Positions 5,603 through 56,754 of a DNA stretch of 64,000 bases are shown here, in pieces. Position 1 is the first letter of the stretch; each line of letters opens with the position of its first letter. Position numbers and translations under genes: made by a program. Source of the DNA: Patescibacteria group bacterium (GTDB lineage: Bacteria; Patescibacteriota; Minisyncoccia; UBA6257; JAAZHW01); the NCBI GenBank assembly GCA_026415775.1, contig JAOAGL010000001.1, positions 111,057 to 175,056 on the forward strand, in the 5' to 3' direction. Under the pieces are notes generated by a model that was given only the letters and a program-made list of their open reading frames with translations, had not been told where the DNA came from and ran no database searches.

Positions 5603-5625
5603 AAAAAAAAGGTCCTTAAAAAAGG
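5603..5625. terminator. bidirectional hairpin terminator
   Basis: aggtcctt-aaaaa-aggacct stem-loop flanked by A-run and T-run between convergent or adjacent units. Confidence 0.4.
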
Positions 5626-6293
5626 ACCTGTTGATATGTTTTATTTGCTACTTTTGCAATTTCAGTCATTATCCGATTGGTAGCTTCAATTAAAAACTGG
5701 GGATTTTCATCAATTTCTTTTTGATTTTTTATTTCGAGTTGAAATGGTTTGCCAATTCGAATTTCTTTTTTCGCAAAGAATCCGATAACACCCTCTTTAA
5801 ATCCATAAGTGCTCGGTCCAAAACATCCGATAGGAATAATCTGACAACCACTTATTAAAGCTATTACCGCCGCCCCCCTTTTTCCTTTTTTTAAAGAGGA
5901 AAAGGGATTTCGATGGCCTTCTGGGAAAATAACCACTATATTTCCTTCGTTAATTAATTTAACAGCCTTGATTAAACTTTCGCGCGCTGCTGGCAAATAG
6001 CCAATACTATCCATTCCGAGCGTTAATATTGTGCTTATTACATGATATTTAAGAAAATTTTTCTGGAGATGCTTGGCACCAATAAAGAAAACCTTTTTCT
6101 TTTTAGGTAAAAGATACATTTTAAAGTAGGCATAAAGAGCAGCAGCTATTATTGGCGGATCATAATTATTCTGATGATTAGCAATAATTAAAAATCCTCC
6201 GTCTTTTGGTAAATTTTCCAATCCCTCAATTTTTTCTAATCTCGGTCTGATTAAGGAATAAACAAAAAAATAGAGTAGTTTATAGAATAACAT
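5616..6293 (-). CDS. plsC: 1-acyl-sn-glycerol-3-phosphate acyltransferase
   Basis: H(x4)D acyltransferase motif (IIANHQNNYDP) and FPEGHRN (FPEGTR motif). Confidence 0.75.
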   Translation of the reverse strand: MLFYKLLYFFVYSLIRPRLEKIEGLENLPKDGGFLIIANHQNNYDPPIIAAALYAYFKMYLLPKKKKVFFIGAKHLQKNFLKYHVISTILTLGMDSIGYLPAARESLIKAVKLINEGNIVVIFPEGHRNPFSSLKKGKRGAAVIALISGCQIIPIGCFGPSTYGFKEGVIGFFAKKEIRIGKPFQLEIKNQKEIDENPQFLIEATNRIMTEIAKVANKTYQQVLF

Positions 6294-6615: not shown

Positions 6616-6755
6616 TAGAAATTGCAAGTTCTTTTTTAAATTTAATACTTTTCTTTTAAAAATCAACCCCATTGCATATTAAAAGAAAAATTGAAAGAAA
6701 AAATTATGTAAGTTATAATATCCAAAATAGTCAATTTGCCCCTCCTATTCCCCTT

Positions 6756-8279
6756 ATGCGATTTACTATTAAAGATAAGCGAATAGTAATCAAGAGATTT
6801 TTTCTCACTAAAACCTCTTCTTCTTTCACCCTCATTGAACTTTTAATTGTTATCGCTATTTTAGCTGTGTTAATGTCTGTGATTGTTGTTAGCTTGAATC
6901 CCGCAGAAATGTTGAAAAGAACCAGAGATGTGAGACGCCAGGCAGATTTAAAAGCTATTAACTCAGCTTTATTAATTTATTCTGTTTCCAATCCTAATGG
7001 TTTTTTTGGTTCTTCCACCATTGTTTATATCTCCATCCCTTCTAACTATTCTAATTGTTCTGATTTGGGCTTACCGCCACTTCCCTCAGGTTGGTCTTAT
7101 CATTGTTCAAACGCTGATAATTACCGAAAAATTGATGGCAGCGGTTGGATTCCAGTTAACTTTAATTCTTTAGATGTTGGCGCTCCTATTTCTGCTTTGC
7201 CCATTGACCCCATTAATTCAACCACTTCAGGCAATTATTATACTTATGTTACCGGTGGTTCTTGGGAATTAACCGCTCTTTTTGAATCACAAAAATATCG
7301 CCAAGAAAGCGCTCCCGCTGATGGCGGAGATGTGGTGAATGGTTTTGAGGTCGGCAATAATTTAACCCTCACTCCCATTATCTTTCCTCACAACTGGATT
7401 AAAGTGCCGGGCAGTTCTCTTTACGGCACCAATGATTTCTGGGTGATGCAATTTGAAGCTAAATACTCTAAAACCGGTTCTGGCGCTGATGATGCTGGAG
7501 CTTGTTATTATACTTCTGGCTACGATACCTGGGATTGGGGCAAAACCGGAACCGACTGTCCGTCTTCTTGGTCAAACACTAATGTCGTTTCCTCTCCTTA
7601 TGGTTCGCCGATTGCCGGTGTTAGTCATAATGAAGCCAAAGCCATTTGTCAATCATTAGGCGGTCATCTGATAACTAATCAAGAATGGATGACCATTGTC
7701 AGAAATGCTGAGCAAGTGGAAGAGAATTGGTCAGGTGGTTCGGTTGGTTCTGGCTGTCTTTTTCGGGGTAATGTCGGTTCTAACGATGCCTGCGGCTATG
7801 ATGGCGCTAACCCGGAAAAGGGAATTAATCGCAATCCCAAAGCCAAATTAATTCTTTCCAATAATGAAGAAATCTGGGATATGGCGGGCAATGTTTGGGA
7901 ACATGTAATGAAAGATTTAAATGATACTCTGGTCAATAACCATCCTACCATTCTTTCCGACAACACCTGGAAGTGGTCAGAACATACAGCCAGCTGGACT
8001 AGTTATGGTGATCTTTCTTACAATGAAATCAGACCTTCCAATTCTTCTTGGAACGTCAATCAAGGAATGGGCAGGATTTATCATTATGATGGTTATTACA
8101 GCGGCCGTGTTCTGCTTCGCGGCGGGTATTGGGATGGTGGTGACAGTGCCGGGGCGTTGACGCTGTACTTGATATTGGGACGCGACGACTCAGAGCAGCC
8201 CTGTGGGGTTTCGCTGCGCCCGCTGATCCCCGTGAGATACCTCCGTATCTCACGGGGTGAAGGGGTTTTGGTAATTTAA
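6756..8279 (+). CDS. DGR target protein: N-terminal type IV pilin-like methylation motif fused to a C-terminal FGE-sulfatase/C-type-lectin-fold domain carrying the VR. The 3' end as annotated is probably frameshifted.
   Basis: SFTLIELLIVIAILAVLMSV is a prepilin-type N-terminal domain. HNEAKAICQSLGGHLITNQEWM...GNVWEHV matches the FGE/sulfatase-modifying-factor fold. The VR occupies the last codons. ATG at 6756 is the first in-frame Met (the tool's 6672 start is TTG). In the frame set by TR the protein would end ...WDATTQSSPVGFRCAR-TGA at 8226. Confidence 0.7.
   Translation: MRFTIKDKRIVIKRFFLTKTSSSFTLIELLIVIAILAVLMSVIVVSLNPAEMLKRTRDVRRQADLKAINSALLIYSVSNPNGFFGSSTIVYISIPSNYSNCSDLGLPPLPSGWSYHCSNADNYRKIDGSGWIPVNFNSLDVGAPISALPIDPINSTTSGNYYTYVTGGSWELTALFESQKYRQESAPADGGDVVNGFEVGNNLTLTPIIFPHNWIKVPGSSLYGTNDFWVMQFEAKYSKTGSGADDAGACYYTSGYDTWDWGKTGTDCPSSWSNTNVVSSPYGSPIAGVSHNEAKAICQSLGGHLITNQEWMTIVRNAEQVEENWSGGSVGSGCLFRGNVGSNDACGYDGANPEKGINRNPKAKLILSNNEEIWDMAGNVWEHVMKDLNDTLVNNHPTILSDNTWKWSEHTASWTSYGDLSYNEIRPSNSSWNVNQGMGRIYHYDGYYSGRVLLRGGYWDGGDSAGALTLYLILGRDDSEQPCGVSLRPLIPVRYLRISRGEGVLVI
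8100..8224 (+). repeat. DGR variable repeat (VR)
   Basis: Aligns to TR 8742-8865. It differs at TR positions a>t, aa>gg, a>g, t>g, a>t, a>ta (1-nt indel), a>g, a>g, a>g, aa>cc. The last 24 nt (gtggggtttcgctgcgcccgct) are identical and GC-rich, like an initiation-of-mutagenic-homing (IMH) element. Confidence 0.85.
8228..8257 (+). promoter_or_regulatory. Perfect 12-bp stem / 6-nt loop hairpin 4 nt downstream of VR (DGR homing-associated hairpin/cruciform)
   Basis: ccccgtgagata-cctccg-tatctcacgggg. The position immediately 3' of the VR/IMH mirrors the hairpin that enhances retrohoming in the Bordetella phage BPP-1 DGR. Confidence 0.6.
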
Positions 8280-8307
8280 TCTAAAATCTAAAATTTAAAA
8301 AACTTTC

Positions 8308-8667
8308 ATGTTAAACGATTTGATTGTTTTTCAAAAGACCTATGATTTTTACGTTTGGCAAAAAACTATTATTCTTCATCTAGCCAAAGTTCATAAATAT
8401 AGTTTGGGTATCCAATTAGAAAACGAAACATTAAATCTTTTAAAACAGATAGTCAAAGCAAATTTAAGCCGAACAGCCAAAAAAGAAGAAATAGAAAATT
8501 GTTTAGTATCTTTGGAAATTATTAAAGTTTTGATAAGGGTCGGCCACGAATTTAACAGAGAAGGCGGGATTAGTTTGAAAAATTATCAACTAGCATCAGA
8601 GAAACTTGCAGAAATCGGAAAATTGTTGGGTGGCTGGTTGAAAAATTTCAGCGGCCGGGCGCTTTAA
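8308..8667 (+). CDS. avd: Avd-like accessory variability determinant (four-helix-bundle protein family)
   Basis: 119 aa. LIVFQKTYDFYVWQK near the N-terminus and ISLKNYQLASEKLAEIGKLLGGWLKN at the C-terminus resemble the four-helix-bundle (23S rRNA intervening-sequence protein) family to which Avd belongs. Sits between the target and TR. Confidence 0.7.
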   Translation: MLNDLIVFQKTYDFYVWQKTIILHLAKVHKYSLGIQLENETLNLLKQIVKANLSRTAKKEEIENCLVSLEIIKVLIRVGHEFNREGGISLKNYQLASEKLAEIGKLLGGWLKNFSGRAL

Positions 8668-8741
8668 TGGCATTATAAGCCGTAGAGAATCCGGCCGCCC
8701 CGTTCTGTTTTTTACAGGACGGGCGGGGGATAAAATCAATA

Positions 8742-8865
8742 AGCGGCCGTGTTCTGCTTCGCGGCGGGAATTGGGATAATGGTGACAATGCCGGGGCGTT
8801 TACGCTGAACTTGAATTGGGACACGACGACTCAGAACAACAATGTGGGGTTTCGCTGCGCCCGCT
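8742..8865 (+). repeat. DGR template repeat (TR)
   Basis: Invariant donor copy of the VR. In the frame matching the VR it carries 8 AAY (Asn) codons (aat, aat, aat, aac, aat, aac, aac, aat) and encodes ...NNNVGFRCAR. Lies in the avd-RT intergenic region. Confidence 0.85.
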
Positions 8866-8989
8866 TCAGTGGTTATAATTTGCCAGAACTTTGCCTTTTC
8901 TTTGGAAAGGCGAAGGTGTGCTTTACAAAACCCCAGATTTTATTCCCTCCCGATATGATTTTATCATAGGGAAAATATTAGGCTTTTAC

Positions 8990-9037
8990 CCCGAGGCAGT
9001 GAAAGTAGTTAAATTATTACGAAATTTCTGCCTCGGG
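8990..9037 (+). other. 10-bp stem hairpin within the structured TR-RT spacer
   Basis: cccgaggcag...ctgcctcggg with a 28-nt loop. Additional small hairpins nearby: atgat-ttt-atcat and acgtc-ttgcgat-gacgt. DGR TR-spacer RNAs are known to be structured and needed for cDNA priming. Confidence 0.4.
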
Positions 9038-9080
9038 CCATTAAGCCCCCTTTTAATATAACGTCTTGCGATGACGTAAA

Positions 9081-9103
9081 TATAGATATAGATATAGATA
9101 TAT
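9081..9103 (+). repeat. hexanucleotide microsatellite (TATAGA/ATAGAT, about 3.5 units) abutting the RT start codon
   Basis: tatagatatagatatagatat directly precedes and overlaps the ATG at 9102. Confidence 0.6.
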
Positions 9104-10142
9104 GTTTGATAAAATCTGCTCTTTTCAAAATTTATACTCAGCTTATTTAAAAGCGCGAAAAGCCAAAAGATATCGGCCTTATATTTTAGAATTCAATTTT
9201 AATTTAGAAGAAAATTTACTGAATCTCCAAAAAGATTTATTAAACTTGACTTATCAGCCAGGACCATATCGTCAATTCACTGTTTGTGATTCTAAAAAGC
9301 GGCTCATTAAGGCGCCGGCGTTTCGTGACCGCATCATCCATCACGCTTTATGCAATGTCATTGAGCCGATTTTTGACCGAGGATTTATTTTCGACAGTTA
9401 TGCTTGCAGGAAAAATAAAGGCACCCATCGGGCAGTTAAAAGATTGGGGAATTTCATTAAATCATTAAAAACGCGTTTGGGGGAAAGTACGACCAGTGTC
9501 GAAACTTATTGCCTTAAATGCGATGTTTCCAAATATTTTGAAAATATAGACCATAATCTTTTGTTAGGTTTTATTGCAAAGAAAATTAAAGATAAGAGAG
9601 TTTTCTGGTTGATTAAACGAATTATTGAAAGCGATTCGCCGGGGATACCCATTGGCAATTTAACCAGCCAGCTTTTCGCCAATATTTATTTGAACGAATT
9701 AGACCAGTTCATAAAACATTATTTAAGAGAAAAGTATTATCTTCGCTATATGGACGATTTTTTAATTTTAGATATCAATAAAAAGCGATTGCATCAAATT
9801 AAGCGCCAAATTCAAAAATTTTTAAGAGATAAATTAAGATTAGAATTACACCCCAAAAAAGCCAATATTTTTCCGATAAATAAAGGAATTGATTTTTTGG
9901 GTTATAAAATATTTTTTAATTATCGTTTGCTGCGCAAAAATACCGTTAAACGTTTTATTAGAAGATTAAAAAAACATCAACAACAATTAAAAAATAATTT
10001 AATAAAAATTAATGATTTTAAAAAAACATTTTACTCTTGGTTGGTTTATGCTCAATTTGGAAAATCTTGGCGATTAATAAAAGATTTAAAGTTTAAAGAA
10101 AGACTTTGTTCAATACATAATGCCAGATATATATTATATTAG
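9102..10142 (+). CDS. DGR reverse transcriptase
   Basis: 346 aa. RT motifs include PGIPIGNLTSQLFANIYL (the DGR-RT-specific motif 4, as in Bordetella Brt IGNLTSQ) and the catalytic YMDD (RYMDDFLIL). Confidence 0.85.
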   Translation: MFDKICSFQNLYSAYLKARKAKRYRPYILEFNFNLEENLLNLQKDLLNLTYQPGPYRQFTVCDSKKRLIKAPAFRDRIIHHALCNVIEPIFDRGFIFDSYACRKNKGTHRAVKRLGNFIKSLKTRLGESTTSVETYCLKCDVSKYFENIDHNLLLGFIAKKIKDKRVFWLIKRIIESDSPGIPIGNLTSQLFANIYLNELDQFIKHYLREKYYLRYMDDFLILDINKKRLHQIKRQIQKFLRDKLRLELHPKKANIFPINKGIDFLGYKIFFNYRLLRKNTVKRFIRRLKKHQQQLKNNLIKINDFKKTFYSWLVYAQFGKSWRLIKDLKFKERLCSIHNARYILY

Positions 10143-11715: not shown

Positions 11716-11786
11716 CGGGGTGTAGTATAACGGTAGTACGCTGGGTTCGGGACTCAGTGGCCCGGGTTCAACTCCCGGCACCCCGA
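11716..11786 (+). tRNA. tRNA-Pro (anticodon CGG)
   Basis: CGGGGTGTAGTATAACGGTAGTACGCTGGGTTCGGGACTCAGTGGCCCGGGTTCAACTCCCGGCACCCCGA. Anticodon loop TTCGGGA. Confidence 0.7.
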
Positions 11787-11796
11787 CACCACAAAT

Positions 11797-12011: not shown

Positions 12012-12983
12012 ATGGCGGAAATTCTTAATGGTTATTCTTCAAAAAATATCAAAAAAGCTGCTCAATTATTAAAAAAAGGAGAGCCAGTAGTTTTTCCAAC
12101 GGAAACGGTTTATGGTTTGGGAGCGATTGCTTATCATAAAAAATCAGTGGCGAAAATTTTTGAAATAAAAGAAAGACCATTTTTTGACCCAATTATTGTT
12201 CATATTGCTAATTTAAAACAATTGGAAGAGGTGGCTGAGGTAAAAGATGAAAGAGTAAATATTTTAATTCAACATTTTTGGCCAGGTCCTTTAACTTTAA
12301 TTTTGCCTAAAAAGAAAAAAATTCCTTATTTAGTAACAGCAGGTTTAGAAACAGTGGGAGTAAGAATGCCACAGAATATTATGGCTTTGTCTTTGATTGA
12401 AGAAGTGGGAATGCCTATTGCAGCGCCAAGCGCTAACAAATTTTCTCAATTAAGTCCAACGCGCGCGGAACACGTTGAAAAACAAATCGGCGATAGAGTT
12501 AAAATTATTTTAGATGGCGGAAAAACAATTTTTGGCGTTGAGTCAACAATTTTATTAATGGAAGAAACGCCTGTTGTTTTGCGCGCAGGTGGATTAGCGA
12601 TTGAGGAAATTAAAAAAGTTATTGGCCCAGTTTTAATGAAAAAAAAGTTAGACGATAAAGTATTGGCGCCAGGGAATTTAAAAACGCATTACGCTCCGCA
12701 AAAGCCGCTTGTTATTGTTAATAACGAAGAAGAAATTCAGCAATTTAAAGAAAAAAGAAAAATAGGATTTTTGGCTTTTCAAAAAATAAAGAATAAAAAA
12801 TTATTTGTAGATTATAAAATTTTATCGCCAAAAGGAGATTTGAAAGAAGCAGCGAGTAATTTTTTTGATTGTCTTCATCAATTAGACGAAGGGCCGTCTG
12901 AAATAATTTTTGCTGAAAAAGTAGAAGAAGTTGGGTTGGGTAAAGCAATTATGGAAAGATTAATCAAAGCAGCCCACAAGTGA
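12012..12983 (+). CDS. L-threonylcarbamoyladenylate synthase (Sua5/YrdC/TsaC family, with Sua5 C-terminal domain)
   Basis: YrdC signature VVFPTETVYGLGA. 323 aa, consistent with the long Sua5 form. Confidence 0.8.
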   Translation: MAEILNGYSSKNIKKAAQLLKKGEPVVFPTETVYGLGAIAYHKKSVAKIFEIKERPFFDPIIVHIANLKQLEEVAEVKDERVNILIQHFWPGPLTLILPKKKKIPYLVTAGLETVGVRMPQNIMALSLIEEVGMPIAAPSANKFSQLSPTRAEHVEKQIGDRVKIILDGGKTIFGVESTILLMEETPVVLRAGGLAIEEIKKVIGPVLMKKKLDDKVLAPGNLKTHYAPQKPLVIVNNEEEIQQFKEKRKIGFLAFQKIKNKKLFVDYKILSPKGDLKEAASNFFDCLHQLDEGPSEIIFAEKVEEVGLGKAIMERLIKAAHK

Positions 12984-12984
12984 T

Positions 12985-13440
12985 ATGTTTCAATCAAAAA
13001 CAATGATTATTCTTGCTATTGTTTTAATAATTTTATTAATTATTGGCGTTTATTTTGTTTTAAAAAAAGAAGTTGTTGAAATAAATTTTGGAAAGAAAAA
13101 TTTAACAGTGAAAGCGGAGGTGGCGGAAACATTATGGGAACAAACGAGGGGGTTGATGGGAAGAAAACATTTGGGAGAATTTGAAGGAATGCTTTTTGTT
13201 TTTACTGATGAAGCGCCAAGAAGTTTTTGGATGAAAAACACTTATATTCCATTGGATTTAATTTTTATTTCTCAAGAGAAAAAAATAGTAGAAATTAAGC
13301 GGAATTTTGAGCCTTGTCAGGAAAGTAATTGTCCTGTCTATCGCTCGCAAGCTTCAGCAAAATATGTTTTGGAGGTGAATGGTGGTTTTTGTGAAAAGCA
13401 TCAGATTGAGGTTGGCGACGAATTAGATTTTTCATTTTAG
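12985..13440 (+). CDS. DUF192 (COG1430) family protein
   Basis: TRGLMGR...GMLFVF...FWMKNTYIPLDLIF matches the DUF192 consensus. N-terminal TM anchor. Confidence 0.65.
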   Translation: MFQSKTMIILAIVLIILLIIGVYFVLKKEVVEINFGKKNLTVKAEVAETLWEQTRGLMGRKHLGEFEGMLFVFTDEAPRSFWMKNTYIPLDLIFISQEKKIVEIKRNFEPCQESNCPVYRSQASAKYVLEVNGGFCEKHQIEVGDELDFSF

Positions 13441-13491
13441 AGTTTTGAAAAAATTTTTTGGAAAAATTTTTGGTAAAAAGTTATCCACATA

Positions 13492-13519
13492 TTGCATGAG
13501 GTTCAATTTGTGTTAGAAT
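13492..13519 (+). promoter_or_regulatory. sigma70-like promoter upstream of the radical SAM gene
   Basis: TTGCAT (13492-13497), 16-nt spacer, extended -10 tgtTAGAAT (13511-13519). Confidence 0.35.
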
Positions 13520-13572
13520 GAAAGTGGAAAATAAAAACGAGTATAAAAAATTTTCTAAAAAATAAGAAAGAG

Positions 13573-14505
13573 ATGCTCGCAGAAAAAATTTCAGACCACC
13601 TAAAAAAATTAGCGACAACGAGTTCAGCAATCAAGAAACAGTTTTTTATCTCGAAATGGGAACTTCATGCTAAAGAAGATAAATTAAGCTCGTCCGATCC
13701 TTTATTAGAAGATGAATATACAAAAATACGCGGCCTGATTTACAAGTATTCGGGTCGCGTTTTGATTTTATTAACGCTTTCTTGCGCTTCTTATTGCCGT
13801 TTTTGCACGCGGCGACGTTGTGTTTCAGAAATTGAGAAGGGGATTTTAACAAAAGAAGATATAAATCGAATGGCTGATTATATTCAAAAACATCAGGAAA
13901 TTAAAGAAGTTATTTTGTCTGGCGGCGATCCTTTAACAGTCCCCGAGCTTTTAAAATATGCATTAAAAGTTTTTTCGGCTTTGCCGCAAATAAAAATTAT
14001 TCGGATTGGGACGCGGGCACCAGTTTCTAATCCAAAATTAGTTAACGATTCGCTAATAAGAGTTATTAAAAAAATAAAACAACCAGTTTATATTGGAATT
14101 CATTTTGAGCACCCTGATGAATTAACCAAAGAAACAATTGAGGCTTGCGAAAAATTACGCAAAGCGGGCGCGATTTTGTATAGTCAGAGTGTTTTTCTTA
14201 AAGGCGTTAATGATTCTTATAAAGTTTTGTATGAATTGTTTTCGCGTTTGATAGAAATTGGAGTGAAACCTTATTATTTGTATCGCTGCGATCCAGTAAA
14301 AGGCATTGAACATTTTCGGGTGCCGTTTGAAAAAGAAATTAAAATTGCCACGAAGTTGAGAAAAAATTTATCGGGGTTGGCTTGGCCAACTTATGTTATT
14401 GATACGCCGAACGGCAGCGGAAAAATTCCTGTGCCTTTGGAGTTTTGGGAATTTAATAAAAAAGAATTTAGAGATTTTTTGGGGGAAAGGCATAAGGTTA
14501 TTTAA
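13573..14505 (+). CDS. KamA-family radical SAM protein (lysine 2,3-aminomutase / EpmB-like)
   Basis: CASYCRFCTRR (CxxxCxxC radical SAM cluster) and the SGGDPL motif typical of the KamA family. 310 aa. Confidence 0.7.
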   Translation: MLAEKISDHLKKLATTSSAIKKQFFISKWELHAKEDKLSSSDPLLEDEYTKIRGLIYKYSGRVLILLTLSCASYCRFCTRRRCVSEIEKGILTKEDINRMADYIQKHQEIKEVILSGGDPLTVPELLKYALKVFSALPQIKIIRIGTRAPVSNPKLVNDSLIRVIKKIKQPVYIGIHFEHPDELTKETIEACEKLRKAGAILYSQSVFLKGVNDSYKVLYELFSRLIEIGVKPYYLYRCDPVKGIEHFRVPFEKEIKIATKLRKNLSGLAWPTYVIDTPNGSGKIPVPLEFWEFNKKEFRDFLGERHKVI

Positions 14506-14530
14506 TTGCAAAGATTTTTTAGGGTAAAAA

Positions 14531-14555
14531 GCAGGCGAAGCAGAGCTTCGCCTGC
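14531..14555 (+). terminator. Rho-independent terminator
   Basis: gcaggcgaagcagagcttcgcctgc hairpin followed by aattatttt. Confidence 0.5.
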
Positions 14556-14656
14556 AATTATTTTCAAAAACCCCTTTCCTTGACAAAATATAAAAATAAA
14601 GTAGAATTTAGGCAGCTTTTTGAAAAAGAAAATTTTTTTTAAAAGGAGGTTTTACA

Positions 14657-16074
14657 TGAAAAAAAATTTAGGAGTGTTTGTGGTACTGCTGCTGCTGGCA
14701 ACAGCGGCAGCTGGGCAAGAAATTGAGTTGAAGGAGCTGGGAAGGGCTCCTTTGAGTCCATATCTCCAGTCCCCAGCGGAGGTAAGAACTCTTCTCGGTC
14801 GCGTGAATGAAGAGCTGGGCAGGGCTTTGGATTTTTTCCCTGGTGGAGGGCTCGGCGAACAAGTTTATGCCTCTCTCTATGAACAGTTGCAGAATTTGAA
14901 AATGGAAGTAGTAGATATTCATCCAAACCAAAAAATGGTTTGGATGATGTACTCGAAGGGACGTCTCCTGAAGTCGGTGGTTTGGAAAGGCAATGAGTCT
15001 TTCCAAGCGTACAAGTTCCGGCTGGAAGTGGAGGGAAAAATTTTTACATTTATAGTTCCAATTCGTTGCGGCAACATCGCGCTTCTCGAAATGCGAGAAG
15101 CGCCGGTAGCTCCACAACCACCAGCTCCAGTTCCACCGGCTCCTCAACCGCCAACTTCGCAACCACCAGCTCCTACTCCGCAGCCAATCCCAGTTCCGCA
15201 ACCGCCAGCTCCTCAGCCAACATCGGTGACTCCGGTCATGGTTCATTGGACTCCCACTATAAAAATAAAAGTGGGAGGGGGATGGGCAGGAATAAAATTT
15301 CCCGCACCAGTAGATTTTTCCAGCTCACGCGTTGACTTCTTCTCTCTTATTCCCGCTGATTCCTCCGTCTTCTATTGCGAAGACGGGGTAGCCTTCTGGT
15401 ACTACAGTCCTAGAAACTCCATTCCCTTTGCCGTCGGCCAGAGCGTACCGCTCTGGCGGCACGAGGTGGTAGAAATTCAGAAGGGAAAGAATTTTCCCTT
15501 CTACGCGCAGATAGAAATCGAGTTCGCGCGTAATTTATTCATTACCGGATCCTTTTTCGAACTCGGAAAATACTCTTCTTTCCAATACGAAGGAAAGGAG
15601 AGTATGGTATTGGACGAGGTACGTCTCCTCGGCCAATACCAGGGACAAGAAGGGCAGACCTGCCCCCCCACGTACGTCTATTACGTGGGGTTACACCGGG
15701 ACTGGCATGAAATCCTGGTCCGGGAGAACATCCGGATTCAGGAGTTTTCAGCTGGTATTTCATACCAGCTGAAGGTGGTGAGGAATGTTTTTGTCACCCC
15801 GCAGGGTGGGGTGACGTGGCAGACCCGGCGGGGTACCCGAGTGACGGATACCACTATTAGCAAGTGGTATCCGTTTAAGGAGGCCCCTCTCGAGAAAGAG
15901 AGGGTAACCGAGGTGGTGGAAAAGGTAAAATCCACCACAACCCACCCTTATGTGGGGATTGGGTTGGAAATCGGTCCCTTCTTTCTCGAAGGTCGCCGTC
16001 TGTTCGGCGACCAGCCGGGACCAATGAAAATCTCTCCCTGGCGTGTCCAGGGAGGGATCCTCCTAAAAATTTAA
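14657..16074 (+). CDS. secreted Pro-rich-linker protein with C-terminal beta-rich (barrel-like) domain, encoded in a compositionally foreign GC-rich island
   Basis: Strong SD (aaggagg) 7 nt before the ATG at 14657. Signal peptide MKKNLGVFVVLLLLATAAAGQE. APVAPQPPAPVPPAPQPP linker. C-terminal half has alternating hydrophobic beta-strand periodicity. Codon usage is GC3-rich (ctg, ggc, ccg), unlike its neighbours. Confidence 0.6.
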
Positions 16075-16083
16075 AAAAAATAA

Positions 16084-16108
16084 GCCCCGAGACCGAAGGT
16101 CGAGGGGC
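16084..16108 (+). terminator. terminator after GC-island gene
   Basis: gccccgagaccgaaggtcgaggggc imperfect GC stem followed by ttttctttttc. Confidence 0.4.
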
Positions 16109-16137
16109 TTTTCTTTTTCTTAAAATTTTTTTTCAAA

Positions 16138-16329
16138 TTATTTTTTCTCAACTTCAATGGCTTCAACTGGGCAAGATTCAATAGCTTCTTTTAATTTTTC
16201 CTCGTCAATTTTTTCAATTTTTTTAACTTCTGCTTTACCCTCATTATTTATTTCAAACATTTCTGGATAAATAAAAGTGCACGTGCCGCAACCCAAACAT
16301 TTTTTTTGATTTATTTTTATCTTTTTCAT
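16138..16329 (-). CDS. 4Fe-4S ferredoxin (single-cluster, small)
   Basis: CLGCGTC...CP motif. 63 aa. Confidence 0.65.
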   Translation of the reverse strand: MKKIKINQKKCLGCGTCTFIYPEMFEINNEGKAEVKKIEKIDEEKLKEAIESCPVEAIEVEKK

Positions 16330-16348
16330 AAGAAACTTTTTAAGCGAC

Positions 16349-17008
16349 CTATAAATTGTATTTTTCTTTGTAAAAACGAATAAGTTCTTTAACTAAAGGA
16401 AGACATTTTGAATCACCTAATCCAACTTTGGTTTTTGCTTGTACTTCTTCCAAAGTTGTAGCGCCTTCAAGAACTGCTTTTTCAATATCGCGTTCGGTAA
16501 TTTTTAAAACTTTATCAACAATGCGGCTGCCTTCTGGTTCAATTTTATCGTATTGTTTTGTTCGGCGGTAATAATCATTAATAGCATCGCGCAAAGCTTT
16601 ATCACCCAAAACTGAGCAGTGATATTTAATAGCGGGCAAACCTCCTAATTCTTTAATTATATCATCAGGCGTGATTTTGCGCGCTTCCTCAATTTTCATT
16701 CCGCCGTTTTTGGTAATCATTTCTGATAAAACCGAAGTTGAAGCAATAGCTGAAGCGCAGCCAAAAGTTCGCCAGCGGCATTTTTTAATTTTTTCTGTTT
16801 TTGGGTCAATCCATAACCAAAATTTCATTACATCGCCGCAAGCGGGACTACCCACCATTCCTAAAGCGTTATATTTAAATTTTTCTTCTTCTCCGAATTT
16901 CATAAAATTTTTTGGGCGGAGAAAATGTTGGCGAACTTTTTTGCTGTAAACCCAAGGTGCGCCGCTTAAAATATCAATTTCTTTTTTTTGTTTCTTTTTG
17001 TTTGTCAT
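16349..17008 (-). CDS. NifU/IscU-like Fe-S cluster scaffold protein
   Basis: SPACGDVM...FGCASAIAS matches the IscU/NifU N-domain cysteines. Confidence 0.75.
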   Translation of the reverse strand: MTNKKKQKKEIDILSGAPWVYSKKVRQHFLRPKNFMKFGEEEKFKYNALGMVGSPACGDVMKFWLWIDPKTEKIKKCRWRTFGCASAIASTSVLSEMITKNGGMKIEEARKITPDDIIKELGGLPAIKYHCSVLGDKALRDAINDYYRRTKQYDKIEPEGSRIVDKVLKITERDIEKAVLEGATTLEEVQAKTKVGLGDSKCLPLVKELIRFYKEKYNL

Positions 17009-18198
17009 TTTATTTGAAGAGAGAGCGGAGATAATTCTCTTAATTTTTTAACGACTTTTTCCAATGATTGAATTAGATAATCAATATCTTTTTTGGTGGT
17101 ATATTTGCCGAGTGTGATTCTAATGCTTCCATGGATGAATTCAGGAGGTAAACCAATGGCTTTTAAAACATGTGAAGGTTGAAGGCTTTTGGAATGGCAA
17201 GCTGAGCCAGTGGAAACCGCAATGCCTAATTCGTCTAATTTTAAAACCAACGCTTCGCCTTCAACATCTAAAACTGAGACATTGATATTATTCGGTAAAC
17301 GATTTTTTAAATCGCCGTTAATAATAATTTTTGGGATGCGTTTTTTTAAATTTTCAACCAGATATTTTTGTAATTTTTTGAGCCGCACGCTTTCTTTTGT
17401 TTTTTCTTTTTGAGCTAATTCTAAAGCTTTGGCAAAACCAATCAGACCAGCCACATTTTCTGTGCCAGAACGATAACCAAATTCTTGGCCGCCGCCGAAA
17501 ATAATAGGCGTTAGTTCAATACCACTTTTTTTATAAAGCATACCAGTTGCTTTTGGGCCATAAATTTTACTGCCATTTAAACTCATTAAATCCACTCCTA
17601 ATTGTTTTGGTTGAATATTTAAATAACCAGCTGCTTGGCAGGCATCGGTATGAAAAAAAGGAAAGATGGTTTTATTTTTCACGCGAAAATTTTTGAGATA
17701 TTGAGCAATTTTTTTAATTGGTTGAACAATGCCAATTTCATTGTTGGCGTACATTATAGAAATTAAAAGCGTATTTTTATTGATTTGCTTTTTTAATTTT
17801 TCTAAATCAACAATGCCGTTTGGCAAAACATTTAAGTAAGTAATTTTAATCCCATTTTTTTCAAGAAATTTTGCTGTTTCCAGCACTGCTGGATGTTCAA
17901 TTTGAGAGATAATAATTTCTGGTTGAGAGAAATTTTTTCGGTAATAATTTACAGCGCCTAAAAGAGCTAAATTAACTGATTCGCTGCCGCCATTGGTAAA
18001 AATAATTTCTTCGGGTTTAATCTTTAAAATTTGCGCAATTTTTTGACGGGCTTTTTCAAGGAAAAATTTGGCCATTCTTCCTTCATAATAAATTGCTGAA
18101 GGATTGCCAAAATATTTTTGCCAAAAAATCTCCATTTCTTTAATGACTTCTTTTCTAACTGGTGTGGTGGCGGCGTAGTCAAAATAGTAGCGTTTCAT
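17005..18198 (-). CDS. cysteine desulfurase (NifS/IscS, class V aminotransferase)
   Basis: HTDACQAAG and the PLP-lysine region SLNGSKIYGPKATG. 397 aa. 4-nt overlap with nifU. Confidence 0.75.
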   Translation of the reverse strand: MKRYYFDYAATTPVRKEVIKEMEIFWQKYFGNPSAIYYEGRMAKFFLEKARQKIAQILKIKPEEIIFTNGGSESVNLALLGAVNYYRKNFSQPEIIISQIEHPAVLETAKFLEKNGIKITYLNVLPNGIVDLEKLKKQINKNTLLISIMYANNEIGIVQPIKKIAQYLKNFRVKNKTIFPFFHTDACQAAGYLNIQPKQLGVDLMSLNGSKIYGPKATGMLYKKSGIELTPIIFGGGQEFGYRSGTENVAGLIGFAKALELAQKEKTKESVRLKKLQKYLVENLKKRIPKIIINGDLKNRLPNNINVSVLDVEGEALVLKLDELGIAVSTGSACHSKSLQPSHVLKAIGLPPEFIHGSIRITLGKYTTKKDIDYLIQSLEKVVKKLRELSPLSLQIK

Positions 18199-18199
18199 A

Positions 18200-18601
18200 T
18201 TATTTTAAAAATTGATTTAGTTTTATTTTGGCCAATTTTTTAGCTAAATCTTTGTTTAAAGTTTGCCAGCAGTTTTTAAGGGCGCATGTTTGAGAAGTAC
18301 AAAAGGGTGAGCAATAAACTAAAGAGATTGGTCCTTCAAGAGTTTCAATAATAGAAAGTAATGAAATTTGCTGAGGCGATTTTTTAAGACGATAACCGCC
18401 AGTTTTGCCTTTTTGCGATTCAATTAATCCAGCTTTGACTAATTGGCGATTGATTTTTTGAAGATGATAAAAAGAAACTCTTTTTTCATTACAAAAAGAG
18501 CGCAAATTAATAAAATCGCTTGTTTTATTTTGGGCTAAGAATAAAAGCCAGCGGAGAGCCAATTCGATTTGTTTGGAGATTTTGATACTTTTGAAATTCA
18601 T
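18200..18601 (-). CDS. Rrf2-family transcriptional regulator (IscR-like)
   Basis: N-terminal wHTH (ALRWLLFLAQNK) and a C-terminal cysteine cluster (CSPFCTSQTC). Heads the nifS-nifU-fdx operon. Confidence 0.65.
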   Translation of the reverse strand: MNFKSIKISKQIELALRWLLFLAQNKTSDFINLRSFCNEKRVSFYHLQKINRQLVKAGLIESQKGKTGGYRLKKSPQQISLLSIIETLEGPISLVYCSPFCTSQTCALKNCWQTLNKDLAKKLAKIKLNQFLK

Positions 18602-18701
18602 ACTAATGAATACTCAATTAGTATAAAAAAACAAAATTAATTGTCAACAAAAAGAAAAAAGGACCCTAAGGGCCCTTTTTTCTTAAGAAGCAAATTATTT
18701 G

Positions 18702-19208
18702 CTAGCGATGCAAGATGTAATCAACCTCCACTTTCAATCCTAAGCCAGTTTGGTCAAAGCGCATTCGGATATTAATGTCCTCTTTTGCTCTTCGAGCGTA
18801 CAAATTATAAATTTCACCGCTTGAAGTATCATTAATAATCGTCCAGTTGTTTTTGGTTAAATAGTTTTTGAAAGTAGTAATTAATTCTCCTATCGGTTTT
18901 TTAGAATAATAAGCAAGATGAGCTGTTACATCTCCACTATCTTTGTATTGGGTTTTTGTCGATTCAATTAAGCGCGTTCCGGATTCAAACGGAAAATCTT
19001 TTGGGAAAATTTCAGCTGGGATATCGCTGTAATCCCAAGTTTCTAAACTAGCTTCAGATTGAATAGAAGTAGTAACAGTTGCTTGTTGCTTAACTCCGCT
19101 CTGTTTGCCGTATAAATAGCCACCGATACCAATTAAAACCATTAGAACAATAATGATAATCCATAAAAGAGCTTTATTTGATTTTTTTGTGATGGTAATC
19201 TCAGCCAT
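18702..19208 (-). CDS. hypothetical membrane-anchored protein
   Basis: N-terminal TM (LLWIIIIVLMVLIGIGGYLY) and a 130-aa extracytoplasmic domain. A further unlisted mini-ORF of about 38 aa (MDELNQAPMQETKPKKKLTWLWIVLAIIIILAIVYFAL) lies at 19210-19329 on the minus strand. Confidence 0.4.
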   Translation of the reverse strand: MAEITITKKSNKALLWIIIIVLMVLIGIGGYLYGKQSGVKQQATVTTSIQSEASLETWDYSDIPAEIFPKDFPFESGTRLIESTKTQYKDSGDVTAHLAYYSKKPIGELITTFKNYLTKNNWTIINDTSSGEIYNLYARRAKEDINIRMRFDQTGLGLKVEVDYILHR

Positions 19209-19437
19209 ATTTTACAAAGCGAAATAAACAATCGCTAAAATAATAATAATAGCAAGAACAATCCAAAGCCAAGTTAATTTTTTCTTTGGTTTTGTTTCTT
19301 GCATTGGAGCTTGATTTAGTTCGTCCATAAAAGAATGAATGTTAAATTAAATTCGACCTTGGCACATTTTTATTATAACTCAAAAAAGGACGTCAAACAA
19401 ATTGCTTGTGGATAAAAAATAGGGTAAAATAAAAATA

Positions 19438-19971
19438 ATGAAAAATAGAGGGTATACTTTGGTGGAAATTTTAGTGGTTTTGGGAGTGACGGCTTTATTA
19501 AGCGGCCTTTTGTTTGTTTATAGTCGACAAGGTGAAAAAATCGGTGAAATTATGAGGGTGCGAGCGCAGGTTGTATCAGATATTAATCGAGTAAAAAATT
19601 TAGCTATTACAGCTGCCACTTGGCAAGGGCAATTAACTTGTGGTTATGGTATTTATTTTGATATCCCAAACAATCAATATATTATTTTTACTGATATTTC
19701 TGCTGATTGTAAATCATCGAATCATTTACGCAACCAAGCACAAACTCAGGATGTAGAAAGAATAAAAACGCCTCAGCGATTTACGTTGGTTAATACTAAT
19801 GTTCAACAAGTATTTTTTATGCCACCTCAACCATTTGTTTTTTTTGATGGTCAAGCAGCTGAGAAGCAAAGTGCAATTGAAGAAGTTGAGATTACATTTG
19901 GTTATTTGTCTGATATAGACCCAGCCTTTAAAGTTTATATTAATTCCATTGGTCAAACTTGGGCTTATTAA
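19438..19971 (+). CDS. type IV pilin / pseudopilin (prepilin-type N-terminal methylation domain)
   Basis: MKNRGYTLVEILVVLGVTALL is a class III signal peptide (G-[FY]TL[IV]E). Confidence 0.7.
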   Translation: MKNRGYTLVEILVVLGVTALLSGLLFVYSRQGEKIGEIMRVRAQVVSDINRVKNLAITAATWQGQLTCGYGIYFDIPNNQYIIFTDISADCKSSNHLRNQAQTQDVERIKTPQRFTLVNTNVQQVFFMPPQPFVFFDGQAAEKQSAIEEVEITFGYLSDIDPAFKVYINSIGQTWAY

Positions 19972-20467
19972 AATGAAAAAAAAGATTCAAACAACAAAAA
20001 ATGGTTTTAGCATTATTGAGGTAGTAGTAGCAATTGGTGTTATTTTAATTGCCTTTACAGGCATGCTCACTTTAATTAATCGTTCTTTAGCTTTTCATGA
20101 TTTGGCTTATAGTCGCCTAATTGCTTCTTATTTAGCACAGGAAGGCATAGAAATTATTAGAAATATCCGCGATAATAATATTTTGCAAAATAAAAATTGG
20201 AATGCTGGATTATCAACGGGCACTTATCAAGTGCAGTATAATGATTTAGCGTTAAGAAATTATACTGGCGAGCCATTAAAGCTGGATACAGTAAATGGTA
20301 TTTATAATTATGATTCGGGTTCGATTACGCGTTATATAAGGCAGGTTGATATAACAACCATTTCTTCTGACCATATTTTTGTTAAATCAATTGTTACATG
20401 GAAAAATCGCGGCGGCTCTTTTGATATTGTGGTCGAAGATCATTTATATAATTGGCTTGGCGATTAA
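19949..20467 (+). CDS. pseudopilin (prepilin-type N-terminal domain)
   Basis: KNGFSIIEVVVAIGVILIAF. Confidence 0.65.
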   Translation: MVKLGLIKMKKKIQTTKNGFSIIEVVVAIGVILIAFTGMLTLINRSLAFHDLAYSRLIASYLAQEGIEIIRNIRDNNILQNKNWNAGLSTGTYQVQYNDLALRNYTGEPLKLDTVNGIYNYDSGSITRYIRQVDITTISSDHIFVKSIVTWKNRGGSFDIVVEDHLYNWLGD

Positions 20468-20976
20468 TGAAAAAAAATAATCCTCAATTAACGGGTTTTA
20501 CTTTAATTGAAATATTGGTGGCTACAGCAGTGTTTTTAACGGTGATTAGCATTACAACTGCTACATTTTTAACCAGTTTGCGTACCCAGCGTTATCTTTT
20601 GGCTTCAATTAATGGTACAGCCAACCTTGCTTATGCTTTGGAAGTAATGGGACGAGAAATTCGTATGGGTAAAAGTTTTTTTGCTCCAACTGAAGACACT
20701 CTAAATTTTCTAAATGTTGATAATGATGCCATTGTTTATCGTTTGAATTCGGTTACTCAACAGATTGAAAGGTCAATCGGAGGCGGGCCATTTAAAACTT
20801 TAACGTCGCCAGATGTTCGCGTTTTATCTTTAAGATTTATTATTAGTGGCGCCGAGCGCCAAGATGGACAACAGGTAAAAGTAACGATTTTGCTAAAAGT
20901 AGCTTCATATGCTGGTCGAAGACAAATTGAAAGCAATATCCAAACAACCATCAGTAGTCGTCAACCAGAAACATAA
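20452..20976 (+). CDS. pseudopilin (GspJ/PilW-like)
   Basis: LTGFTLIEILVATAVFLTVI. Confidence 0.65.
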   Translation: MAWRLMKKNNPQLTGFTLIEILVATAVFLTVISITTATFLTSLRTQRYLLASINGTANLAYALEVMGREIRMGKSFFAPTEDTLNFLNVDNDAIVYRLNSVTQQIERSIGGGPFKTLTSPDVRVLSLRFIISGAERQDGQQVKVTILLKVASYAGRRQIESNIQTTISSRQPET

Positions 20977-20977
20977 A

Positions 20978-21319
20978 ATGAATAAAAAAATTTTAAACAA
21001 TAAAGGTCAGGCAATGCTCATTACACTTTTGATTTTGAGCGCTTCATTTTTAATTGCGATGGCTTTGGGTAGTTTGGTTTTATACGAATTAAGATCAATG
21101 ATTTTTACTGGTGAATCAATTAAAGCTTTGTATGCTGCCGAGAGTGGTTTAGAGTGGAAATTATTTGAAAATATAAAGGGTGTTTTAATTGAAGCGCCGA
21201 CAATGACTAATAATTCTTCGTTTGAAGTTTCTGTTTCTAATCCGCCTGCTGGTGGGACACTGATAAAATCAATAGGACAAAGTGGAAACAACTTTAGAGC
21301 TTTGGAAGCATCTTTTTAA
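20978..21319 (+). CDS. minor pilin-like protein (PilX-like)
   Basis: ATG at 20978 is in frame with the tool ORF. NKGQAMLITLLILSASFLIAMALG is a hydrophobic N-terminus lacking the conserved Glu5, as in PilX-type minor pilins. Confidence 0.5.
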   Translation: MNKKILNNKGQAMLITLLILSASFLIAMALGSLVLYELRSMIFTGESIKALYAAESGLEWKLFENIKGVLIEAPTMTNNSSFEVSVSNPPAGGTLIKSIGQSGNNFRALEASF

Positions 21320-21323
21320 TTAA

Positions 21324-23429
<2,106 letters not shown>

Positions 23430-56741: not shown

Positions 56742-56754
56742 AATTTACTGAAAT

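Follow-up and report, generated by a model that had tools for sequence, protein, structure and literature searches.

Why does a single gene in the AT-rich genome of a member of the candidate phyla radiation (CPR) have a GC-rich composition, and does that composition record a recent arrival? The gene lies at 14656-16074 (+ strand; 472 amino acids plus the stop codon) of a 64,000-nucleotide stretch of DNA from a Patescibacteria group bacterium (GenBank assembly GCA_026415775.1, contig JAOAGL010000001.1, positions 111,057 to 175,056), which was analysed as a whole and is referred to here as the window. The window has an overall GC content of about 0.33; measured in sliding segments of 150 nucleotides, GC content passes from 0.31-0.33 upstream to 0.43-0.61 across 14625-16124 and to 0.25-0.33 thereafter, with sharp borders. 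The gene itself has a GC content of 0.512, with 0.59, 0.41 and 0.53 at the first, second and third codon positions (GC1, GC2 and GC3, respectively). In 56 other open reading frames (ORFs) of the window, GC3 has a mean of 0.253, a standard deviation of 0.036 and a maximum of 0.37, so that the gene deviates by z scores of 7.7 for GC3, 6.1 for GC, 4.0 for GC1 and 1.9 for GC2. The shift favours C-ending and G-ending codons alike: CTC and CTG make up 63% of leucine codons (5% in the background), TTC 52% of phenylalanine codons (11%), TAC 61% of tyrosine codons (13%) and CAG 59% of glutamine codons (20%). A first-pass annotation, made by a model from the sequence alone, had described an island much richer in GC than its flanks, with GC-rich third codon positions, and these measurements confirm both points; the start that it gave, 14657, is one base off, in a frame that contains 29 stop codons. 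It had explained the island as likely to be either recently acquired, by horizontal transfer, from a diderm with a high-GC genome or the product of a chimeric assembly join.

The answer reached here is that the gene is an old resident of its locus, vertically inherited, which has occupied the same slot since a deep ancestor of Paceibacteria, and that its GC content is at substitutional equilibrium. The explanation favoured, with moderate confidence, is that it encodes an old, fast-evolving and probably abundant envelope protein of diderm outer-membrane-protein (OMP) ancestry, the composition of the gene being held by selection, partly for a base-paired mRNA.

An old gene in a conserved slot

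About 16 close homologs of the protein were found, and those with a labelled source come from Paceibacteria. In the common arrangement, seen wherever the flanks of these homologs are available, the gene follows a radical S-adenosylmethionine (SAM) enzyme gene, which has Sua5 and DUF192 genes before it, and is followed by a convergent ferredoxin-NifU-NifS-Rrf2 cluster. This slot is occupied in the loci of relatives designated L001, L002, L005-L008, L013-L015, L057, L058 and L064, and also in L065, where the protein (P0028) is 24% identical to that of the window and the flanking radical SAM, NifU and NifS proteins are 71%, 66% and 63% identical. A homolog in L063 has a different genomic context and a GC3 of 0.49. 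The gene is in the slot in all relatives that have a radical SAM protein at least 80% identical and that keep the radical SAM-ferredoxin locus; L030 (radical SAM 86% identical) has different downstream genes and no homolog of the GC-rich gene. Identity matrices of the GC-rich gene and of the adjacent radical SAM gene give congruent groupings, and the tree of the one is broadly congruent with that of the other. The absence from close relatives and the patchy, incongruent distribution that characterize a recent genomic island are therefore not seen.

In L016 and L032 the radical SAM gene adjoins the ferredoxin gene with no gene between, as would be expected before a recent acquisition of the GC-rich gene. 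However, the radical SAM proteins of L016 and L032 are 69% and 77% identical to that of the window (the latter being partial), so that the first of these loci is no closer than the carrier L065 (71%) and the second only slightly closer, and both loci are rearranged, with a different gene after ferredoxin. The empty site as the ancestral state, which would imply an insertion at the level of a clade, was set aside in view of the presence of the gene in the slot of L065 at an equal or greater distance. Because L065 occupies the slot and L016 and L032 are rearranged, secondary loss in the latter two is the simpler history. No mobility gene is among the immediate neighbours (Sua5, DUF192, radical SAM, ferredoxin, NifU, NifS and Rrf2), and the nearest tRNA gene (Pro, 11716-11787) is separated from the GC-rich gene by 2.9 kb and three other genes. 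Only terminator hairpins flank the gene, no dedicated search having been made for flanking direct repeats, and the mobility signature of an island is thus lacking.

The exact protein in the same context was found on contigs from four sequencing runs (SRR31392928, SRR16606022, SRR31366472 and SRR31392930), two of which carry the whole locus at 100% nucleotide identity, and orthologs in the common context come from NCBI, JGI, ENA and Logan assemblies of many samples. A chimeric join, in which a GC-rich segment of another organism was misassembled into a Paceibacteria contig, would fit the sharp shift of composition at both borders, where hairpins and low-complexity A/T runs lie, but the identical gene and flanks in four independent assemblies, the orthologs in common context and the co-variation of promoter, ribosome-binding site and terminators with the gene across orthologs leave it a probability close to nil. 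The suggestion of an assembly artefact can be dropped accordingly.

The gene forms an autonomous expression unit of a single cistron: its promoter is of consensus type, its Shine-Dalgarno (SD) sequence is strong and of a kind rare in the window, and its terminator is strong. Between the upstream radical SAM gene and the GC-rich gene lies a GC-rich hairpin with an 11-bp stem and a 3-nucleotide loop (14531-14555, +), which is terminator-like on both strands and has an equivalent upstream of the orthologs. It is followed by a sigma-70-type promoter, TTGACA-16-TAGAAT (14580-14607, +), with 11 of 12 matches to consensus, the -35 element TTGACA being kept in all orthologs, AT-rich L064 and the more remote L063 among them. 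A small stem-loop, CTTTT-TGA-AAAAG (14616-14628, +), would form the predicted 5' end of the mRNA, and equivalent 5' mini-hairpins of other sequence occur in orthologs (TCCTT/AAGGA in L013, CCTT/AAGG in L002 and L005). The SD sequence AGGAGG (14644-14649, +) ends 6 nucleotides before the ATG; the corresponding AAGGAGGT is kept in all syntenic-slot orthologs examined, AT-rich L064 included, and the distant L063 has AAGGAGAT. The 48 gene starts of the window are essentially without SD sequences, an SD-like motif of any kind being found at only two, and AGGAGG occurs upstream only of the GC-rich gene and of an acyltransferase gene (5616-6293, -). Between the GC-rich gene and the convergent ferredoxin gene is a bidirectional terminator (16074-16118, +), a GC-rich stem GCCCCGAGACC/GGTCGAGGGGC followed by a T-run, which is kept in orthologs with variant stems. 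The strong SD sequence that is rare elsewhere and the hairpin terminators on both sides were thus read correctly in the first-pass annotation. In the orthologs of one group, clade B, a non-coding gap of 650 bp separates the radical SAM gene from the GC-rich gene (9351-10000 in L005, 6934-7583 in L014), compared to 129-206 bp elsewhere.

Equilibrium composition and a hairpin-rich coding sequence

Most homologs have a GC3 of 0.40-0.62 compared to a flank GC content of 0.31-0.38; lower values are found in L073 (0.36), in L075 and L076 (0.32) and in the same-slot ortholog L064, which is host-like (0.24), and the very divergent L065 has 0.62. Synonymous sites are saturated between clades (synonymous divergence, dS, is above 2 or undefined), and therefore the high GC content cannot be accounted for as a residue that has yet to ameliorate. 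The direction of substitution was read at the third positions of synonymous codons, parsimony among members of the closest clade serving to polarise the changes under a lax and a strict rule. In the GC-rich gene, changes from strong (G or C) to weak (A or T) bases (S>W) and the reverse (W>S) number 115 and 132 under the lax rule and 28 and 47 under the strict rule, giving S>W:W>S ratios of 0.87 and 0.60 and an equilibrium GC3 (GC3*) of 0.59 and 0.73, where current GC3 is 0.56. The adjacent radical SAM gene has 56 S>W and 65 W>S changes and a GC3* of 0.31. Per site, S>W changes occur at practically the same rate in the two genes (0.177 and 0.173, respectively), whereas W>S changes occur at a rate of 0.255 in the GC-rich gene versus 0.079 in the radical SAM gene. 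A simple Hasegawa-Kishino-Yano (HKY) simulation of amelioration, with a true equilibrium of 0.28 and a root GC3 of 0.70-0.80, gives a GC3* of 0.44-0.49 under the lax rule and 0.33-0.37 under the strict rule, the ratio of S>W to W>S changes being 1.7-3.6, and a simulated equilibrium at 0.56 returns a GC3* of 0.56 under both rules with a ratio of about 1.1. The GC content of the gene is at substitutional equilibrium and the simulated amelioration model is rejected; the excess of GC>AT changes that accompanies ongoing amelioration of an island is not found.

Like the classical genomic islands of the amelioration model of Lawrence and Ochman, the gene has an atypical GC content and codon usage relative to its host genome and sharp borders around a single gene, but unlike them it is old, syntenic, free of mobility genes and at substitutional equilibrium, and it lacks three of the four defining features of a recent island. 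Recent horizontal transfer from a diderm of high GC content, with amelioration still to come, would explain why composition is atypical at all three codon positions, why the SD sequence and promoter look foreign in an SD-less genome and why the nearest architectural relatives outside the CPR are native to high-GC diderm-type contigs. It is nevertheless very improbable, given a slot shared where flanks are 63-71% and the protein 24% identical, synonymous changes that are balanced or W>S-biased, and the failure to find a close GC-rich non-CPR homolog among 5.8 billion clusters or 1.84 billion representatives. Of the explanation first offered, the foreign composition stands and the recent transfer does not; a diderm origin is plausible as the ancestry of the architecture (see below), not as a recent import.

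The pattern of evolution at the locus bears on what might maintain this GC content. The dS of the GC-rich gene is 0.74-0.83, about four times that of the radical SAM gene (0.17-0.44), and its ratio of nonsynonymous to synonymous divergence (dN/dS) is 0.17-0.20 versus 0.02-0.06, indicating purifying selection overall. Where NifU is 98.6%, 91% and 80-82% identical, the protein is 79%, 61% and 45-48% identical, and in L001 the gene is 79.5% identical between flanks of 96-100% nucleotide identity. In L061, a block of radical SAM gene, GC-rich gene and ferredoxin gene is 100% identical to that of the window and its neighbours are 73-89% identical. Comparison of L061 and L062 with 12012-23429 of the window shows nucleotide blocks of 100% identity in co-occurring strains (the same three-gene block, and a block consisting of the hypothetical gene hyp168 and a pilin gene), which alternate with blocks of 73-89% at Sua5, DUF192, NifU, NifS, Rrf2 and LigA; this mosaic may reflect either genuine recombination or a mixture of strains within the Logan assemblies. 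The mosaicism of the locus resembles an exchange of alleles of a hypervariable gene for a surface protein. Silent cassettes or paralogs comparable to those of vls systems were sought by comparing the gene with the window by BLAST, and no related segment was found elsewhere in the window.

Exchange of this kind would be the substrate for GC-biased gene conversion, in which alleles are exchanged via conserved flanks, heteroduplexes are repaired towards G or C, and W>S changes are fixed only inside the gene. The alternation of identical and divergent blocks, the position of a 79.5% identical gene between nearly identical flanks, and a dS that fits the shuffling of old alleles are what this process would produce, and so are a W>S rate per site three times that of the radical SAM gene and the enrichment of C-ending and G-ending codons together. 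The association of GC-ending codons with conserved residues, a sign of selection for translational accuracy, was sought with an Akashi-type test and rejected, the Mantel-Haenszel odds ratio being about 1, which is expected of a non-adaptive bias; the putatively highly expressed native genes (ribosomal-protein-sized ORFs at 47.9-48.7 kb) have an ordinary GC3 of about 0.25. However, the linker of the protein, which varies more than any other segment, has the lowest GC3 in every ortholog (0.25-0.47 versus 0.44-0.60 in the domains), contrary to what biased conversion in its simple form would predict. No enrichment is seen in the adjacent ferredoxin gene (GC3 0.22) or at the 3' end of the radical SAM gene even though recombination tracts cross them, and the excess of hairpins and their covariation, described below, would be left unexplained. 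The effect in the present gene is +0.28 in GC3; bacterial GC-biased gene conversion reportedly has far smaller effects (Lassalle et al. 2015). GC-biased gene conversion as the main cause is thus unlikely.

The alternative preferred here, selection that acts in part on the mRNA, rests on the finding that the coding sequence is predicted to be heavily base-paired. Its minimum free energy (MFE), summed over 150-nucleotide segments, is -897, compared to -706±16 in whole-gene synonymous shuffles (z=-11.8); shuffling within blocks of 50 codons gives z=-9.7, and dinucleotide shuffles give z down to -6.2 for single segments. Control genes (radical SAM, NifS and the GC-richer target gene of a diversity-generating retroelement elsewhere in the window) have z of about 0 to -3.5. 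There are at least 12 discrete hairpins in the coding sequence, with stems of 9-15 bp, several of them perfect, and predicted energies of -12 to -22 kcal/mol. In 1.4 kb, the expected number of perfect 12-bp stems closed by a short loop is about 5e-4, and three are present; neighbouring genes have no comparable palindromes.

The hairpins, all given on the + strand, are found in corresponding places in alleles of 20-40% nucleotide divergence, where compensatory changes keep them. The first is H0 (14718-14765). H1 (14919-14947) has a perfect 12-bp stem, which is kept in L001 by replacement of AAAC/GTTT with AGGT/ATCT at the price of two amino acid changes (N92G and V96I). H2 (15079-15103) and H4 (15479-15502) have perfect 10-bp stems, and H3 (15437-15457), between them, has a perfect 9-bp stem with a compensatory change of G-C to A-U in L057 and L058. 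In H5 (15570-15605; 14-bp stem), five pairs are changed on both sides, the arms changing in step with S/L and K/R replacements. The adjoining H6 (15605-15641) has a 15-bp stem with 93% complementarity; H7 (15666-15690; 9-bp stem) shows synonymous double compensations; and H8 (15747-15773) has a perfect 12-bp stem with a 3-nucleotide loop. The least conserved is H9 (15796-15834), in which 62% of cells are paired. H10 (15844-15874), another perfect 12-bp stem, is kept in L013 by ACC>ACA paired with TGG>TTG (W404L), and H11 (16030-16058; 12-bp stem with one G.U pair) has three compensated pairs. Counted over a seven-sequence alignment (1001 pair-cells), 83.6% of cells are paired, versus 42-46% with the partners slid, and 22 pairs are changed on both sides, versus 5-11 with the partners slid and 13.4±2.2 in shuffled data (0 of 500).

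Excess structure extends beyond the closest relatives: clade A, L013, L065, L066, L067 and L075/L076 have z scores of -3.2 to -12.9, compared to -1 to -4 in clade B, -0.9 in the AT-rich L064 and +0.1 to -2.4 in diderm homologs. L075 and L076 (coding sequences 1501-2901 and 349-1749, respectively), which carry a divergent ortholog (38% identity), have a GC content of 0.38, a GC3 of 0.32 and z scores of -12.9 and -9.3, the strongest of all; strong structure at modest GC content means that structure and GC content can be uncoupled. Within the gene, GC3* rises with pairing, from 0.48 at unpaired sites, through 0.57 for all sites outside the 12 stems and 0.64 for sites paired in the MFE structure, to 0.66 in the mapped stems, and the S>W rate is 0.124 in stems versus 0.241 at unpaired sites. 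Because GC3* is graded in this way and S>W changes are halved in stems, pairing contributes to the maintenance of GC content.

Whether the hairpins are a property of the RNA or of the DNA has to be weighed separately. Palindromes could arise by template-switch mutagenesis, with compensations as single mutational events, or could act as single-stranded DNA hairpins in uptake or replication. Many stems are perfect Watson-Crick helices even across nonsynonymous changes, and in the window and in L058 both strands fold equally well, as an origin at the DNA level would predict; members of the CPR are thought to rely on DNA uptake. On the other hand, the ratio of G.U to A.C oppositions in stems is 99:51, versus about 1.18:1 in slid controls, and this conservation of sense-strand G.U pairs favours the sense RNA as the level at which the hairpins are kept. 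The stems keep their positions at a dS of about 0.8-1.8, and 22 of their pairs covary; neighbouring genes, although replicated in the same way, lack comparable palindromes, and the halved S>W rate in stems indicates purifying selection on pairing. A purely DNA-level origin consequently has a low probability, similar to that of biased conversion. Comparison of sense and antisense MFE was discarded as a test of the strand, since control genes show a like bias.

Several of these results count against selection on the mRNA as the keeper of GC content, and they temper the confidence placed in it. Structure leaves part of the GC content unexplained, GC3* being still 0.57 outside the mapped stems, a value that biased conversion would accommodate. 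The genes of clade B combine a high GC content (GC3 0.45-0.48) with little structure in excess of shuffles, and L075 and L076 are strongly structured with a low GC3. A confinement of the GC excess to paired bases was considered and rejected, since shuffled sequences nearly reproduce the contrast, which is mostly inherent to MFE prediction. With so many perfect Watson-Crick stems, the assignment of the hairpins to RNA rather than DNA is tentative, and the comparison of strands is of no help. Parsimony at a dS of about 0.8 is biased, a bias controlled by the simple HKY simulation only. High expression and mRNA stability, on which the function proposed for the hairpins depends, are read from the signals in the sequence.

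Some genes of abundant envelope proteins carry mRNA-stabilising stem-loops, as in the hairpin of the ompA 5' untranslated region and the leaders of S-layer genes. Like these, the present unit has a strong promoter, a 5'-terminal hairpin, a strong terminator and probably an abundant envelope protein as its product; unlike them, it has its hairpins inside the coding region, at least 12 of them, with covariation that involves amino acid changes. To our knowledge, no bacterial gene with such a density of intragenic hairpins has been described, and a search of the literature on hairpin-dense coding regions and on OMP barrels in the CPR found no precedent. With Rfam covariance models at gathering thresholds, there is no match in 14.5-16.1 kb, and the matches in the window are only RNase P, tmRNA and tRNAs. 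Coding regions whose structure is selected at synonymous sites are known elsewhere (e.g. PMC1242210), and the present gene shares with them selection for pairing at such sites.

A predicted barrel protein and its relatives

The protein begins with a Sec-type signal peptide without a lipobox cysteine (residues 1-22; 14656-14721, +), read from the sequence as MKKNLGVFVVLLLLATAAA/GQE with its cleavage context and modelled as a low-confidence helix. It is followed by a conserved N-terminal domain of about 125 residues (residues 23-148; 14722-15099, +), predicted with a pLDDT score of 94.6 to comprise three helices and a six-stranded sheet, for which no fold match was found among PDB or viral folds and which is common to proteins of diderms. 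A proline-rich linker of variable length (residues 149-197; 15100-15246, +) has a pLDDT below 50 and a nearly host-like GC3 of 0.33. The C-terminal domain, conserved over about 275 residues (residues 198-472; 15247-16071, +), is predicted to be an OmpA-like 8-stranded beta-barrel with extensions and ends in ...SPWRVQGGILLKI; the C-terminus is ...SPWRVQGGILLK[I/F] in all orthologs, and LKLVI, IKILF, LKLTF or similar in distant members. The protein thus combines a Sec signal peptide with a C-terminal beta-signal-like motif, and its C-terminal domain is predicted to have a closed antiparallel up-and-down 8-stranded fold of OMP type. The prediction of an 8-stranded beta-barrel of outer-membrane type for this domain carries high confidence. 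The signal peptide, the proline-rich linker and the beta-barrel-like C-terminal part noticed in the first-pass annotation were all recovered, and its remark that a barrel is odd for a presumed monoderm is one with which we agree, described members of the CPR being treated as monoderm.

The nearest fold class consists of the small 8-stranded outer-membrane barrels (the OmpA N-domain, OprF-N, OmpW, OmpX/NspA, PagL and Thermus TtoA; PF13505). The present C-terminal domain differs from these in its length, about 120 residues above that of a minimal 8-stranded barrel, in a conserved pre-barrel segment (residues 198-262, containing FYCEDG.A.WYY) and in its host, a member of the CPR in which an outer membrane and the BAM complex are presumed absent; in the present protein the soluble domain precedes the barrel, and in OmpA it follows. 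Among weak matches of the family, only outer-membrane barrel families recur (PF13505, Autotransporter, DUF481 and OmpA_membrane), and PF13505 appears below threshold in 4 of 15 family members (best E 1.4e-4; 21.9 bits compared to a cut-off of 28.7). Strongly polar secondary-structure positions of the C-terminal domain are at least 90% conserved in 16 of 44 cases (including K203, K205, E287, E289, E321, R323, R348, E352, E363, K423, E438 and R447) and strongly hydrophobic positions in 8 of 58, while the soluble N-terminal domain shows the reverse trend (7 of 24 polar and 11 of 30 hydrophobic). This pattern, an indirect indication, would be expected if the domain were a small membrane barrel whose lumen is charged and whose exterior faces lipid. 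The C-terminal domain may instead be an 8-stranded barrel that is soluble or associated with the cell wall and is tethered by the linker and the N-terminal domain; it could, for instance, carry lipids or other hydrophobic ligands taken from a host. We regard this as possible but rather doubtful.

The case for an outer-membrane barrel has its own counterweights. The full-length protein matches nothing at threshold in Pfam, NCBIfam or PDB sequences, so that a match above the threshold of a curated family is lacking, and a profile of the 15-member C-terminal domain family finds nothing relevant among PDB sequences. The outward hydrophobic belt is indicated indirectly, by conservation patterns only (Mann-Whitney U test on entropies, p=0.17; the contrast of counts is clearer). 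No Omp85, POTRA, Lpt, BAM or other outer-membrane biogenesis gene is among the annotated ORFs of the window, which covers only 64 kb of the genome. Described members of the CPR are monoderm (PMC8871954), which leaves the predicted barrel without an evident membrane. Finally, the barrel relatives with a traced source (P0020, P0025, P0028 and the P0032 cluster) come from Paceibacterota or from low-GC contigs, which does not point to a diderm donor of the barrel.

The relatives of the two domains differ in distribution. A profile of the barrel detects 16 relatives among the 1.84 billion representatives, and the distant ones that are full-length share the whole architecture. The N-terminal domain has homologs in high-GC diderm-type contigs (P0017-P0019 and P0034-P0064, one of them labelled Vicinamibacterales), with E values of 1e-19 to 1e-34 and invariant G, WM, W.G and P..CGN..L motifs; a second search, with a word index, returned mostly fragments from high-GC soil organisms. 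Three of the diderm-type homologs are full-length with a C-terminal barrel-type domain, matched by PF13505 only in P0018. The diderm proteins have the same order of signal peptide, N-terminal domain, proline-rich linker and barrel, and end in F or W, but their barrels are shorter and have no detectable sequence similarity to the CPR barrel, and their genes match the composition of their own genomes and lack excess mRNA structure, the gene of the window differing in both respects. On one high-GC diderm-type contig, L009, tandem paralogs of the N-terminal domain lie at 212-1450 and 1557-2228 (E 1e-41 and 6e-37), the family being duplicated there. An ancient capture of the architecture from a diderm is plausible because high-GC diderm-type contigs natively carry this order of domains. 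The layout is also analogous to that of the OmpM/SLH-type tethers of diderms among the Terrabacteria, in which an extended linker joins a periplasmic domain at the N-terminus to a C-terminal barrel. By analogy, it suggests an envelope-tethering role in the diderm relatives; the protein of the window has neither an S-layer homology (SLH) domain nor a coiled coil, and the likeness is one of layout only.

The best account of these data is a model in which the architecture would have been captured long ago from a diderm in which proteins with N-terminal domain, linker and barrel were native. The protein would be abundant and surface-exposed and may interact with the host or with phages, an interaction that would explain its fast evolution. 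The high GC content would be kept by selection, in part for a heavily base-paired and presumably long-lived mRNA, and the structured mRNA may allow a ribosome-poor, SD-less cell to make much protein from few transcripts. The barrel might insert into the membrane of the host or into an unrecognised outer layer, or act as a barrel for hydrophobic ligands.

Neighbouring features and significance

Other features of the window were also noted. A complete diversity-generating retroelement occupies 6672-10142, with its target gene at 6672-8279, a bAvd gene at 8308-8667 and a reverse transcriptase gene at 9102-10142. The product of the retroelement's target gene has a pilin-like N-terminus and a fold of the FGE-sulfatase/C-type-lectin type, and its variable region (8100-8224) matches the template repeat (8742-8865) at 90-92%, with differences almost only at adenines of the template. 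A second, milder GC-rich patch at 7-9 kb is due to this element, which is present or absent among otherwise syntenic relatives. An action of the retroelement on the gene at 14656-16074 was considered and rejected, the template repeat matching only the variable region in the gene at 6672-8279. Two large ORFs without a Pfam match (515 and 650 residues, within 55194-58707 and 61048-62850) lie just upstream of a gene for a TraG/VirB4-like P-loop ATPase (PF19044), with which they may form a type IV secretion or conjugation-like module. The gene at 34598-38176 encodes 1192 residues, in which Pfam recognises only a Lamin Tail Domain; its product is probably a further large protein of the cell surface. 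An ORF of 433 residues at 40383-41684, directly after tRNA-Ile(TAT), has a GC2 of 0.20 and no Pfam match, and AT skew is strongly positive (0.24-0.33) across 40-42 kb.

The gene at 14656-16074 is a counter-example to a usual interpretation: atypical GC content together with expression signals of its own is usually read as recent horizontal gene transfer, and here it belongs to a gene that is old and at equilibrium, which composition-based island callers would misdate. A gene-specific GC anomaly tied to selected intragenic RNA structure would be a rare case of RNA structure constraining the evolution of a bacterial protein, and it hints at how ribosome-poor, SD-less, ultra-small cells may boost the output of one key protein. 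Pfam has no entry for the protein family, with its N-terminal domain, linker and barrel. The conservation of a barrel of OMP type and of its beta-signal across a clade of Paceibacteria bears on the architecture of the CPR envelope and on the contact of episymbiont and host. A stronger proposal, offered tentatively and with less confidence than the model above, is that this clade has long kept a genuine OMP-type barrel, its beta-signal intact, as a major and fast-evolving component of its envelope, the gene being held off genomic composition by selection for an mRNA whose dozen covarying hairpins are strong enough to limit the choice of amino acids. If this is true, gene-specific maintenance of composition by mRNA structure would be an undescribed mode of evolution, able to mimic the scar of horizontal gene transfer, and some Paceibacteria would either have an unrecognised outer lipid layer or deliver the barrel into the membrane of the host cell.

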